Below the pieces are notes generated by a model. It was given only the letters and a program-made list of their open reading frames with translations, did no database searches and was not told the origin of the DNA. Below are positions 11,612 through 22,209 of a DNA stretch of 22,209 nt, one piece after another (the first letter of the stretch is position 1; every line of letters begins with the position of its first letter). The DNA is from a virus (Duplodnaviria > Heunggongvirae > Uroviricota > Caudoviricetes): IMG/VR virus record IMGVR_UViG_2526164633_000039, one strand, 5' to 3'. Made by a program: the position numbers and the translations under genes.

Positions 11612-11641
11612 GTAAGCGGCTCGCCAGAACCGTATTGATAT

Positions 11642-13213
11642 TTACTGAGAGGTCAGATCAACTTTCCAGGGCAACAGATCGCGTACCCGGTTTGCCGGCC
11701 AATCCTGGATATGCTCAATGACGTAACGCAGCCATTTTTCTGGTTCCACATTGTTCAGACGGCATGTGCCGATCAGCGAGTACAACACCGCCGCATGTTC
11801 GCCACCGCTGTCGGAACCCGCGAACAGCCAGTTTTTCCGGCCTACGGCCACTCCCCGTAAGGCGTTCTCTGCGATGTTGTTGTCGATTTCCACCCAGCCA
11901 TTACTGCAGTACACGTTCAGGCCATCCCACTGTTTCAGCAGGTATGCGAACGCTTTTGCCGTATCCGAGTGACGCGACAGTGTTTTCATCTGAGTCTGTA
12001 TCCAGTCATACAGTGACTGCATCAGTGGCGCAGCTCTGGCTTTTCTTGCCGCCAGACGCTGTTCTGCTGTACATCCCCGGACTTCTGCCTCTATGGCATA
12101 CAGTTCACCGATACGCTGCAGGGCTTCCGTGGTGATGTCGGTGGGCACTCTTGCATGCACATCGTGGATTTTTCTCCGGGCATGAGCCATACACGCGGCT
12201 TCCGTTATTCTGCCGGATTCGTATAACACCCGGTAACCACCGTAAGCATCGGCCTGAAGCACACCGCTGTAACCGGCCAGATGATTTTGTGGATGGATAC
12301 CTTTCCGGTCCGGTGAGTACGCGAACCAGACCGCCGGGGGCATTTCCGAACCGGCGTTACGGTCATCACGGACGTAGACCCACAGCCGGGCGGTCCGGGT
12401 TTTACCGCTGCCCGGCTCCTGGACCGGGACGGGGATATCATCAGCATGGACTTTACCGGGCATCAGCACATACTGGCGCAGGACGTCATACAGCGGCTCC
12501 AGCAGTTCAGCAACGGCACCTGTCCAGCGCCCCAGCGTGGCGCGGCTCAGCTCCACGCCCTGGCGACGGTATATTTCTGACTGGCGGTATAACGGCAGAT
12601 GGTCTGCATATTTCCCGGTAACAACATGGGCCAGAAGCCCCGCTCCGGCATAACTGCGTGCAATGGGTTTTGAAGGTACTGTTGCCTGCACGATATGGTC
12701 GCACCGACAACAGGCCAGTTTCGGACGTTGTGTTTCGATAACCTTAAAGGCGCTGCTGATAAGCTCCAGTTGCTCTGACACATCACACCCCAGAGGACTG
12801 AGGTCACCACCACAGGCCGGGCAGCATTCCTCTTCCGGCCGGATGACCCGGGTTTCACGGGGAAGTGAGGCCGGTAACGGTTTACGGGCTGAAGACTGGC
12901 GCAGGGCGGATGGCAGTACCGGGTCATATTGCTCACCCAGCGTTTCCGCCATTTCTTCCTGAAGTGCGCTGATTCGCTCCTGTGCTTCCTGTATCTGCCG
13001 TTCGGTTTTAGCGCGAAGTTTTTCTGAGCTTTTACCGAACTGCATGCGCTGCAGTTTCGCAACCAGCGCCTTCAGCCGGTTGATTTCGGAAGCATAAGCC
13101 GCCACCCGCTGTGAGAGCAGGCGGTTGTATTTCGCCATCTGGCGGATGGTGTCCTGTTGCGTCTGCAACAGTGCCCGCAGGCGGGCATTCTCATGAGCAA
13201 GTGAGGTGTCCAT
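11642..13213 (-). CDS. tnpC: IS66-family transposase TnpC (523 aa)
   Basis: Intact ORF with N-terminal coiled-coil/leucine-zipper-like region, a Cys-rich zinc-finger region (CPACGG...CCRCDH) and conserved IS66 transposase core. Confidence 0.9.
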
Positions 13214-13232
13214 ATCCTCACTTTACAACGGG

Positions 13233-13580
13233 TTATATGCGGATGCCAGCGCGTTCCGTTCGTTTCGGGTGCTTCCAGTCGATGCCTTCGAGAAGCATGG
13301 ACAACTGAGCCGGAGTAAGGTGAACCTTTCCATCGCGGGTGACCGGCCAGACGAAGCGGCCCCGCTCCAGGCGTTTGGTGAAGAGGCACAGTCCGTCACT
13401 GTCAGCCCACAGCACTTTTATCTGGTCACCCCGGCGTCCGCGGAAGATGAACAGATGCCCGGAGAACGGGTCATCCTTCAGGACGTTCTGAACTTTTGAG
13501 GCCAGGCCGTTAAAGCCATTTCGCATATCGGTGATACCGGCAACCAGCCAGATACGCGAACCGGCAGGGAGAGATATCAT
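13233..13580 (-). CDS. tnpB: IS66-family accessory protein TnpB (Orf2, 115 aa)
   Basis: MISLPAGSRIWLVAGITDMRNGFNGLASKVQ... is typical IS66 Orf2. Start overlaps the tnpA stop. Confidence 0.9.
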   Translation of the reverse strand: MISLPAGSRIWLVAGITDMRNGFNGLASKVQNVLKDDPFSGHLFIFRGRRGDQIKVLWADSDGLCLFTKRLERGRFVWPVTRDGKVHLTPAQLSMLLEGIDWKHPKRTERAGIRI

Positions 13581-14230
13581 CAGTGGCTGCTCCCTTTCAT
13601 TTCGCGGATAAGTGTCTGTAATAACGCCGGTGTCAGTTCACCTTTCAGCCTGAGAGTTCCGGCCGGCAGAACCAGCTCGCAGCACAGACTGTCTGGCAGT
13701 GTATTTATCTGTTCAGGTATCTGCACTGGTGCCGGGATTTTATTATCCGGCTCCGGAGTTAACGTCACGGGAAGTAGCGATGTTTCATGTTCGCCGGGCG
13801 GTTGCAGGCCACCGTTACGCCAGAGATGCCGCCAGTTAAAGAGCAGGTTATCGTTAATTCCATTCTCTCGAGCTATTTGTGCGACACAGGCACCGGGTAA
13901 AAGAGTTTGCTGAACCAGTCTCCATTTAAACTCCGGTGAAAATCGGTTCCGGCGGGGTTTCTCTGCTTTCACAGGCTGAGTCACGGTCGGGGCTGAAGGG
14001 TATCGCCCCGGGAAAAGAGCCCGGGCCAGTTGCCCGCAGGAATATTCACCGGAAAGAGGCCAGTCAGTGAATACCTGGTGAAATCGCCTCACCAGAGAAA
14101 AAATGGCGGTTTTGCTGACACCAGTCTGCGCAGAAATGCGCGGGTACGACAGTGACTCGTCAAATCTCAGCTGTAGCACACGCAGGATCAATTCTGGATT
14201 ATCTGCCAGTACCGCTTTTCGTGCATTCAT
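13580..14230 (-). CDS. tnpA: IS66-family accessory protein TnpA (Orf1, 216 aa as drawn; a shorter internal start is possible)
   Basis: First ORF of the element, with an HTH-like N-terminus. ATG at 14228-14230. Confidence 0.75.
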   Translation of the reverse strand: MNARKAVLADNPELILRVLQLRFDESLSYPRISAQTGVSKTAIFSLVRRFHQVFTDWPLSGEYSCGQLARALFPGRYPSAPTVTQPVKAEKPRRNRFSPEFKWRLVQQTLLPGACVAQIARENGINDNLLFNWRHLWRNGGLQPPGEHETSLLPVTLTPEPDNKIPAPVQIPEQINTLPDSLCCELVLPAGTLRLKGELTPALLQTLIREMKGSSH

Positions 14231-20205: not shown

Positions 20206-20209
20206 AGCG

Positions 20210-20554
20210 ATGAAGAAAAAATACGAACTGGTTGTTAAAGGGATAAATAATTACCCGAATAAGATTACTGTTACTGTGGCACTGGAAATTGGTGGGTATC
20301 CGTCACTGTTGTTGCCAGATGTGGCGATTAGTCTTGACCGTACTGAAGATGCCACGCTGGAGTTTTACGAAGCTGAGGCGAAAAAGCAGGCGAAGCAGTT
20401 TTTCATGGATGTTGCTGCCGGGTTATGTGAAGGGGATGGTCCGTTGCCGGAAAAGCGCCCCGTAATTTTAGAGGCGCAGGATGTGTTGATAACCTACAGA
20501 GGAAAACTACCGGGAATAATTACTGGTTCTCTGAAGACTCCACCGCTGGCCTGA
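20210..20554 (+). CDS. Hypothetical 114-aa protein sitting where an endolysin would be expected
   Basis: GGAG-containing RBS. No lysozyme or peptidase motifs recognised. Lower GC than neighbours. Lies directly before the second IS copy. Confidence 0.45.
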   Translation: MKKKYELVVKGINNYPNKITVTVALEIGGYPSLLLPDVAISLDRTEDATLEFYEAEAKKQAKQFFMDVAAGLCEGDGPLPEKRPVILEAQDVLITYRGKLPGIITGSLKTPPLA

Positions 20555-20602
20555 AGACTTAACATATCCAGGGATTTGAAATCGATAAACCCTGATAAAT
20601 AG

Positions 20603-22209
20603 TAAGCGGCTCGTCAGAACCGTATTGATATTTACTGAGAGCTCAGATCAACTTTCCAGGGCAACAGATCGCGTACCCGGTTTGCCGGCCAGTCCTGGAT
20701 ATGTTCAATGACGTAGCGCAGCCACTTTTCTGGCTCCACATTGTTCAGACGGCATGTGCCGATCAGCGAGTACAACACCGCCGCATGTTCACCACCGCTG
20801 TCGGAACCCGCGAACATCCAGTTTTTCCGGCCTACGGCCACTCCCCGTAAGGCGTTCTCTGCGATGTTGTTGTCGATTTCCACCCAGCCATTACTGCAGT
20901 ACACGTTCAGTGCATCCCACTGTTTCAGCAGGTATGCGAACGTCTTTTGCCGTATCTGAGTGACGCGACAGTGTTTTCATCTGTTGCTGTATCCAGTCAT
21001 ACAGTGACTGCATCAGTGGCGCGGCTCTGGTTTTTCTTGCCGCCAGACGCTGTTCTGCTGAACAGCCCCGGACCTCTGCCTCGATGGCATACAGTTCACC
21101 GATACGCTGCAGGGCTTCCGGTGGTGATGTCGGGTGGGCGCTCTTGCATGCACATCGTGGATTTTTCTCCGGGCATGAGCCATACACGCGGCTTCCGTTA
21201 TTCTGCCGGATTCGTATAACGCCCGGTAACCACCGTAAGCATCGGCCTGAAGCACACCGCTGTAACCGGCCAGGTGATTTTGTGGATGGATACCTTTCCG
21301 GTCCGGACTGTACGCGAACCAGACCGCCGGGGGCATCTGTGAACCGGCGTTACGGTCATCACGGACGTAGACCCACAGCCGGGCTGTCCGGGTTTTACCG
21401 CTGCCCGGCTCCTGGACAGGGACGGGGATATCATCAGCATGGACTTTACCGGGCATCAGCACATACTGGCGCAGGACGTCATACTGCGGCTCCAGTAGTT
21501 CAGCAACGGCACCCAGTCCCAGCGCCCCCAGTGTGGCACGGCTCAGCTCCACACCCTGACGGCGGTATATCTCTGACTGGCGGTATAACGGCAGATGGTC
21601 TGCATATTTTCCGGTGACGACATGGGCCAGGAGCCCCGCTCCGGCATAACTGCGTGCAATGGGTTTTGAAGGCACCGGTGCCTGCACGATATGGTCGCAC
21701 CGGCAACAGGCCAGTTTCGGACGTTGTGTTTCGATAACCTTAAAGGCGCTGCTGATAAGCTCCAGTTGCTCTGACACATCACATCCCAGAGAACTGAGTT
21801 CACCACCACAGGCAGGACAGCATTCCTCTTCCGGCCGGATAACCCGGGTTTCACGGGGAAGTGAGGCCGGTAACGGTTTACGGGCTGAAGACTGGCGCAG
21901 GGCGGATGGCAGTACCGGGTCATATTGCTCACCCAGCGTTTCCGCCATTTCTTCCTGAAGTGCGCTGATTCGCTCCTGTGCTTCCTGTATCTGCCGTTCG
22001 GTTTTTGCACGAAGTTTTTCTGAGCTTTTACCGAACTGCATACGTTGCAGTTTCGCAACCAGCGCCTTCAGCCGGTTGATTTCGGAAGCATAAGCCGCCA
22101 CCCGCTGTGAGAGCAGGCGGTTGTATTCAGCCATCTGGCGTATGGTGTCCTGTTGCGTCTGCAACAGTGCCCGCAGGCGGGCGTTCTCATGAGCAAGTGA
22201 GGTGTCCAT
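20603..22209 (-). mobile_element. Second IS66-family copy, partial in window (right terminus plus tnpC region); degenerate
   Basis: Begins GTAAGCGGCTCGTCAGAACCGTATTGATATTTACTGAG, near-identical to the 11612 terminus. Same orientation as copy 1. Continues beyond the window end. Confidence 0.85.
20632..22209 (-). pseudogene. tnpC: IS66-family tnpC, frameshifted (split into three track ORFs: 20632..20904, 20891..21187, 21013..22209)
   Basis: Alignment by eye to copy 1 shows single-base insertions (for example CGTCTTTTGCC versus CGCTTTTGCC near 20940, and extra G's near 21120) breaking the frame. The N-terminus [17 protein letters not shown] is intact at the window edge. Confidence 0.8.

Follow-up and report, generated by a model that had tools for sequence, protein, structure and literature searches.

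Two elements of the IS66 family bracket a group of late genes (Q, a methyltransferase, tRNAs, nanS-p and holin) in a prophage sequence of 22,209 nucleotides, the whole of which was analysed and is called the window here. The question raised by this locus is whether the two elements are copies of a single insertion sequence, inserted at different ages and able to delete or mobilise the segment between them, as had been proposed from the letters alone (the sequence-only reading), or two different elements that arrived separately in native phage DNA. The window has 100% identity to the Escherichia coli draft contig AIHB01000021.1 (GCA_000250235.2), and the host element is a stx-less, Stx-phage-like lambdoid prophage of this draft genome, for which a search of a phage collection returned mosaic matches only, with coverage of at most 40%. 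The Rfam scan of the window found known RNAs only, and the promoter and terminator scan of the window gave no feature relevant to the IS question. The features discussed below are collected in Table 1.

Table 1. Features of the two IS66-family elements, their target sites and the phage genes around them (positions in the window).
Feature	Position	Strand	Basis or remark
DUF968-family phage gene, 5' part, cut by IS679	10872..11611	+	Pfam DUF968, profile 1-72 of 171
Target-site duplication GTTGATCC, 8 bp, left of IS679	11604..11611	.	direct reading of letters
IS679 (IS66 family), copy 1, intact	11612..14315	-	2,704 bp, 100% identity to IS679-annotated copies
IS679 tnpC	11642-13213	-	TnpC 523 aa, intact
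IS679 tnpB	13233-13580	-	TnpB 115 aa, intact
IS679 tnpA	13580-14230	-	TnpA 216 aa, intact
Target-site duplication GTTGATCC, 8 bp, right of IS679	14316..14323	.	direct reading of letters
DUF968 gene, 3' part (ORF 14343-14633)	14316..14633	+	Pfam DUF968, profile 79-171 of 171
RusA Holliday-junction resolvase	14646..15005	+	Pfam PF05866
Q-like late antiterminator (DUF1133 family), called gene 184 aa	15014..15568	+	Pfam DUF1133 3.7e-105, Phage_antitermQ 5.9e-8
N6/N4 DNA methyltransferase	16140..17198	+	Pfam PF01555
Three tRNA genes, anticodons CAT, TCG, TCT	17239..17488	+	ARAGORN, Rfam
NanS-p-type esterase (DUF1737, SASA, DUF6645 domains)	17977..19839	+	Pfam
Class II (P21-type) holin, called gene 71 aa	19990..20205	+	Pfam PF04971
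YdfR/DUF1327 protein	20210..20554	+	Pfam PF07041
Target octamer GATAAATA adjoining copy 2	20594..20601	.	empty site in L002 at 4745-4758; far end of copy 2 lies off contig
ISCro1-type IS66-family element (copy 2), tnpC-side end and whole tnpC	20602..22209	-	1 mismatch + 6 insertions vs intact copy in CP066032

Identity and orientation of the two elements

The first element had been described as intact, and this is correct to the base, with all three Tnp proteins whole. Over its entire length it is 100% identical to several copies in other genomes annotated as IS679 in RefSeq, the comparison being one with annotated copies and not with the ISfinder reference. The NCBIfam equivalogs IS66_access_TnpA (6e-85), IS66_TnpB (5e-38) and transpos_IS66 (3e-142) were all matched, together with Pfam DDE_Tnp_IS66 on the called transposase gene. 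The element ends in GTAAGCG...CGCTTAC, forming imperfect terminal inverted repeats of which the first seven of seven bases are identical and the following ones partially so. The octamer GTTGATCC present on both sides occurs in single copy in homologues with an empty site, where the alignments overlap by 9 bp. The reading frame of the 5' part of the DUF968 gene enters the element by 4 bases and stops at 11615, while uninterrupted homologues encode 349 aa (loci L008-L016), and near-identical prophages free of IS679 show 99.9% identity left of the insertion site. IS679 has transposed into this DUF968 gene, which precedes rusA and Q, and has generated the 8-bp duplication usual for the family.

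The two elements align on the same strand (20602-22209 against 11612-13213) over 1,608 columns with 95.7% identity, 63 mismatches and 6 gaps (E=0), and 6,286 bp separate them, so that the bracketing of the Q / methyltransferase / tRNA / nanS-p / holin block by a direct pair of IS66-family elements, as first noted, stands. The start of the second element was one base off, the junction being at 20602 and not at 20603. Its visible 1.6 kb already fixes the direct orientation, and a refutation by an opposite orientation of the far end is therefore inapplicable. The transposase genes of both elements run antisense to the phage late genes, an arrangement that makes them direct repeats by default.

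The second element resembles other sequences more closely than it resembles IS679. Its identity to the best ISCro1-type copies reaches 99.6% over 1,608 columns, with 1 substitution and 6 inserted bases, and is 98.4% with other ISCro1-type copies. Its left junction coincides exactly with the IS terminus GTAAGCGG, and the terminus GTAAGCGGCTCGTCAG is common to copy 2 and to copies bearing the annotation 'IS66-like element ISCro1 family transposase'. Judged by these comparisons, copy 2 is a different IS species, of ISCro1 type, and not a second copy of IS679; the 4.3% divergence between the two follows from this difference. In uninterrupted homologues the empty site reads GATAAATA followed directly by TCCATG, that is, the octamer, then TCC, then the endolysin ATG. 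The ISCro1-type element would thus have landed between ydfR and R, 3 bp ahead of the start codon of the endolysin gene. A simple insertion would have as its far end GGTTTAAATGAGCCGGTTAC, then the octamer GATAAATA and then the endolysin TCCATGAACACC, and an intact 2.7-kb ISCro1-type element would end in GAGCCGGTTAC ahead of the same octamer and TCCATG. As assembled, copy 2 measures 1.6 kb and the contig stops 24 bp after the start codon of tnpC; the earlier statement that the element runs beyond the window is right, by 24 bases after position 22209 only, since the source contig ends there, within the IS. No other assembly with the copy 2 junction was found by exact-pattern scans of genome_contigs and viral_contigs, the species-representative collection not including the source strain, and a look-up of YdfR for siblings carrying this junction returned only long IS-free contigs, this protein being widespread (3,856 blocks).

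Frameshifts at the end of the contig

In the deposited sequence, tnpC of copy 2 lies in three reading-frame pieces, and the matches to NCBIfam transpos_IS66 are split over three ORFs. The called gene of the frameshifted product encodes 342 aa, with a later start than the 398-aa ORF, and this product is recorded only in the AIHB01000021.1 assembly. The frame is broken by six 1-base insertions (20943, 21120, 21132, 21512, 21518 and 21525), five of which lengthen a homopolymer and which form clusters of three within 14 bp and two within 13 bp. Indels outnumber substitutions 6:1, and every one of them is an insertion. By comparison, the 12 kb of unique sequence in the window contains a single indel relative to 11 other assemblies, against six in the 1.6 kb of copy 2. 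The same degradation is seen in a sibling draft with the adjacent accession prefix AIHD, apparently from the same sequencing project as the source, in the last 500 bp of a contig and inside the NanS-p gene.

From the homopolymer insertions, their clustering, their place at a contig end and the confinement of the product to one assembly, we propose that the frameshifts are most likely errors of the consensus and not marks of age: the assembler would have run into a multi-copy repeat, where the contig stopped and the consensus may have become erroneous. The six inserted bases persist in assembly version 2 and could be real. Of the sequence-only reading, the frameshifts are confirmed for the deposited sequence, where they look like assembly or sequencing errors; and the two insertion events were indeed separate, whereas the difference in age inferred from them loses its ground, the divergence being that between two IS species. 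The case holds a lesson on data quality, namely that an IS which looks 'decayed' near a window edge may be the stretch where a draft contig runs out and errors accumulate, and that divergence between 'copies' can mean two members of one IS family.

The block between the elements and the alternatives

Prophages lacking both elements match the intervening segment colinearly, at 98.3-99.97% identity, which indicates that this segment predates the elements and is native phage DNA, not transposed cargo. Its 620-aa NanS-p protein exists in an identical version in many E. coli prophages, and the tRNA in first position of the cluster is named tRNA-Ile by RefSeq in homologues. Provided that both insertions are real and exert polar effects, the defectiveness of the prophage would be explained in part, with Q placed beyond a 2.7-kb antisense insertion and the endolysin cut off from the holin.

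A deletion derivative produced by recombination between the two elements would keep the left junction of copy 1. This junction is absent from all 5,426 complete E. coli genomes, a set that lies outside this sublineage, and no hybrid-IS derivative was therefore found among them; the site in the DUF968 gene was found occupied in five draft assemblies. These five include all four assemblies listed for the right junction of IS679 along with RusA and Q. The comparison of related genomes, suggested earlier as a search for a single hybrid IS, thus brought up no deletion variant in the complete genomes or the five drafts, and the predicted presence/absence polymorphism of the block was not borne out. 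The polymorphic feature is the presence of the IS itself, near-identical prophages having empty sites. The left junction of copy 2 is likewise found in 0 of the 5,426 complete genomes, and both insertions look recent and lineage-restricted.

Taken together, the data are, in our judgement, quite probably explained by two independent simple insertions of different IS66-family elements, with a native block between them and consensus errors at the contig end. That the elements would instead be same-IS copies of different age, the second truly decayed, and would drive recurrent deletion or mobilisation of the block with polymorphism among strains, appears improbable. The pair does have the geometry of a deletion substrate: the elements point the same way and share far more homology than pairing minimally requires (identity is unbroken for 50 bp or more in 8 runs and for 25 bp or more in 25, the longest runs being 164, 93 and 82 bp). 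In addition, the deposited copy 2 is frameshifted, and on the Agrobacterium plasmid pAt15955 a direct IS66 pair has deleted the intervening DNA by homologous recombination (PMC6778807). Loss of the block by RecA-dependent recombination over at least 1.6 kb at about 96% identity is possible in principle, a property generic to any direct repeat. Evidence against decay is given, however, by the single substitution that separates copy 2 from intact ISCro1-type copies, which points to a different element, and by the pattern and uniqueness of its frameshifts; the junction data given above speak against recurrent deletion. Alternatively, the two elements could have formed a composite transposon whose cargo would be Q, the methyltransferase, the tRNAs and NanS-p; only the geometry, with related IS elements on either side of a gene block, speaks for it. 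We rejected this candidate as scarcely credible, given that IS679 has its own target duplication, with the DUF968 gene resuming immediately after it, and that IS-free prophages contain the block in colinear arrangement. Moreover, the tnpA-side end of IS679 (13898-14315) did not align with ISCro1-type copies in BLAST and the terminal sequences differ, so that a single transposase may be unable to act on both ends.

Several hypotheses concern the second element and its surroundings. Copy 2 could be the breakpoint of a rearrangement with another IS66-family copy that has already split off the endolysin, Rz and the structural genes, in agreement with a contig that stops inside the IS, short of the endolysin, and with the 15-20 IS66-family places per closed genome searched (including an O111:H2 strain), which offer many partners. 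We hold this to be unlikely, the left junction being a clean IS terminus at a site otherwise intact. The comparable closed-genome insertions whose flanks were read (L001, L009 and L018) are all simple, with an 8-bp duplication, annotated phage genes resume right after the IS in L024 and L035, and contigs of draft assemblies end at any multi-copy IS, whatever the context. In closed genomes, further independent IS66-family insertions occur in this late region, one such genome having a direct pair of ISEc8 and ISCro1, and the insertions seen there are all antisense (5 of 5 in the unbiased set, about 10 of 10 with biased finds). It might be argued from this that in Stx-phage-like prophages the late-regulatory and lysis region is a target of IS66-family elements, or retains them by selection, always in the same orientation, antisense to late transcription, so that direct pairs would arise systematically as cassettes for deletion or exchange of the Q-tRNA-(stx)-nanS-p-holin module; we regard this as very improbable, and no recombination product of such direct pairs was seen among the insertions examined.

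Comparison with known systems

Insertions of IS elements in EPEC and EHEC prophages are amply documented, as are IS679, ISCro1-type elements and the recombination of directly repeated IS copies, and the biological weight of two simple insertions of this kind is small. IS679 was reportedly first described from a plasmid of EPEC B171. Copy 1 shares with it the length of 2,704 bp, the tnpA, tnpB and tnpC genes, the GTAAGCG termini and the 8-bp target duplication, and differs in the insertion site alone, here the DUF968 gene of a prophage. Copy 2 matches the ISCro1-type elements, a family whose name derives from Citrobacter rodentium (PMC3072379), in tnpC and terminus, and differs from them by six additional single bases, which disrupt tnpC.

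The pair as a whole resembles that of pAt15955, where two IS66-family elements in tandem orientation also flank a segment (PMC6778807). Each element of that plasmid has its own 8-bp duplication, as is seen here for IS679. In contrast, the Agrobacterium elements are copies of the same element and their deletion product was observed, with one IS left between flanks that do not match, whereas the present ones are 4% diverged and no such product was found. A likeness exists also to the defective lambdoid prophages of EPEC and EHEC that are rich in IS elements, such as those with structural polymorphisms associated with IS629 in O157 (PMC3271280), where the IS belongs to the IS3/IS629 family and not, as here, to the IS66 family: in both, an IS lies inside regulatory and lysis genes of a prophage, and its presence is polymorphic among near-identical prophages.

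Directly repeated IS66-family elements around the late-regulatory block

When the window was compared with itself by repeat scan and BLAST, positions 20602-22209 (copy 2) aligned with 11612-13213 (copy 1) on the same strand over 1,608 columns with 95.7% identity (63 mismatches and 6 one-base gaps), a similarity far above chance. The two copies are direct repeats and their inner ends are separated by 6,286 bp. This confirms, with small corrections only, the proposal of the sequence-only reading that two direct IS66-family copies bracket the block; the coordinates given for copy 1 (11612-14315) hold exactly, and the start of copy 2 lies one base before the proposed 20603.

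Copy 1 (2,704 bp) matches several RefSeq-annotated IS679 copies, on chromosomes and plasmids, with 100% identity, and its minus-strand products, TnpA (216 aa), TnpB (115 aa) and TnpC (523 aa), all three match NCBIfam IS66 equivalog models. Its termini are imperfect inverted repeats, both starting GTAAGCG, and the octamer GTTGATCC adjoins the element at both ends. The insertion interrupts a DUF968 gene, with positions 1-72 of the Pfam profile at the left and 79-171 at the right, and the uninterrupted site is found in the same prophage at 9 loci from other assemblies, which are 99.8-99.98% (left) and 98.3-99.97% (right) identical to the window. Copy 1 is a textbook simple IS66-family insertion.

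Between the copies lie, in order, the 3' DUF968 fragment, RusA, a DUF1133/Q-like antiterminator, a 65-aa ORF, an N6/N4 DNA methyltransferase, three tRNAs (anticodons CAT, TCG, TCT), sRNA STnc100, a NanS-p-type esterase, a P21-type holin and YdfR. Stx-type lambdoid phages typically have such a late-regulatory region; here it lacks stx. Its colinearity with IS-free prophages marks the block as resident phage DNA that did not arrive as cargo with the IS elements. The interval from the tRNA cluster to NanS-p, the position of stxAB in Stx phages, measures only 488 bp (17489-17976). A mosaic boundary lies just after the holin gene (window 20128-20601 versus 14850-15275 of the related locus L009): identity to L009 is 99.97% through 20127, then only about 80% across ydfR, and the ydfR stretch of the window is 99.9% identical to a prophage of strain 700462. 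Upstream of copy 1, a 343-aa ORF gives a faint SIR2_2 match as its sole Pfam signal and is possibly a prophage-borne defence gene; it is broken or shorter in some relatives (L009, L011, L014).

Positions of features in the window and of IS66-family insertions in comparison loci from other assemblies
Feature	Sequence	Positions	Strand	Remark
DicF	window	4422-4473	-	Rfam, above gathering score
343-aa ORF	window	8500-9531	+	between DUF977 and hok/sok locus
sok antitoxin RNA	window	9734-9908	+	Rfam, above gathering score; adjoins hok-like gene
sRNA STnc100	window	17564-17754	+	Rfam, above gathering score; between tRNA cluster and NanS-p
Six extra bases	window, copy 2	20943, 21120, 21132, 21512, 21518, 21525		all insertions
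IS66-family insertion	L001	18192-20890		between terminase subunits
IS66-family insertion	L008	15764-18099		in terminase gpA
IS66-family insertion	L009	12151-14836		in holin gene
IS66-family insertions	L012, L014, L015			in terminase gpA
IS66-family insertion	L024	4600-7280		in endolysin gene
IS66-family insertion	L035	8440-11130		between NanS-p and holin
Direct ISEc8 + ISCro1 pair	L036 (one closed genome)	6569-8881 and 10260-12875		brackets tRNA cluster

Identity of copy 2 and origin of its frameshifts

Among 5,426 complete E. coli genomes, the top matches of copy 2 are elements annotated "IS66-like element ISCro1 family" (99.6%). Copy 2 is not a diverged IS679, because base by base it differs from the CP066032 ISCro1-type copy by 1 substitution and 6 inserted bases only. 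Its sequence identifies it as a different IS66-family member from copy 1, and the 4.3% difference between the copies is what separates two IS species and is no gauge of age. The copy 2 junction falls exactly at the IS terminus (GTAAGCGGCTCGTC...) and the target in uninterrupted homologues reads ...GATAAATA followed by TCC ATG, the ATG being the endolysin gene start; this would place copy 2 between ydfR and R, at 3 bp from where R starts.

The divergence and frameshifts of copy 2 had been taken as signs of two insertions of different age. Neither this nor decay is supported, as the copies are different IS species and the insertions-only pattern sits at a contig end; a 6:1 ratio of indels to substitutions, insertions exclusively, is unlike pseudogene decay. 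Five of the six insertions lengthen a G or C run, and they are clustered, three inside 14 bp and two inside 13 bp. The window is 100% identical to contig AIHB01000021.1 (GCA_000250235.2), which extends only 24 bp farther than the window, ending shortly beyond the start codon of tnpC, and is the only record of the frameshifted 342-aa product. In contrast to copy 2, the internal IS679 copy is error-free, and comparison with near-identical assemblies gives one T-run indel private to the window in about 12 kb of comparable single-copy sequence, versus six in the 1.6 kb of copy 2. This indel, at 10148, is the lack of one T relative to 11 other assemblies that contain the prophage, and its probable cause is a homopolymer error of the source assembly. 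AIHD01000036.1 (L004), apparently a sibling draft from the same sequencing project given its adjacent accession prefix, carries more than 70 mismatches and 13 indels in its last 500 bp, inside the NanS-p gene (equivalent to window 18011-18480). This has the appearance of a mixed consensus where the contig runs out, as in copy 2. We consider it likely that the copy 2 frameshifts arose from consensus errors at the contig end, within a multi-copy repeat.

Recombination between the copies

As direct repeats, copies 1 and 2 could in principle recombine. The longest perfect runs in their visible homology are 164, 93, 82, 80 and 80 bp, with 25 runs of at least 25 bp, and if copy 2 is complete the shared homology would span about 2.29 kb, up to the divergent tnpA-side ends. 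A divergence of 4% substantially lowers RecA-dependent exchange in mismatch-repair-proficient E. coli. A deletion derivative would retain the junction between DUF968-5' and the IS; in complete E. coli genomes this junction gave 0 records at ≥80% coverage, and no ydfR-IS junction was found. Five draft assemblies encode a DUF968 product truncated to 247 aa, and five contigs show the product of the right junction with RusA and Q behind it; among the matches listed, all four assemblies with the right junction belong to the five with the truncated product. The comparison of related genomes for deletion variants with a hybrid IS revealed none in this small sublineage sample of five drafts, and the predicted presence/absence polymorphism of the block was observed neither there nor in the complete genomes. 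The strains do differ in whether they carry the IS elements. For direct IS66 pairs in Agrobacterium, deletion of the intervening DNA has been shown (PMC6778807).

IS66-family insertions in related prophages

Each closed genome searched, an O111:H2 strain included, has 15-20 IS66-family places. In all late-region insertions seen, the tnp genes are antisense to the phage late genes (5/5 unbiased, about 10/10 once loci from an orientation-biased query are added; the set comprises window copies 1 and 2, L009, L008, L024, L035, both L036 elements and L001), which may stem from selection or from a preferred target or orientation. Independent IS66-family insertions are common in this late region, the L036 pair included, and two direct elements in one prophage are therefore unremarkable; all the elements described here belong to known kinds.
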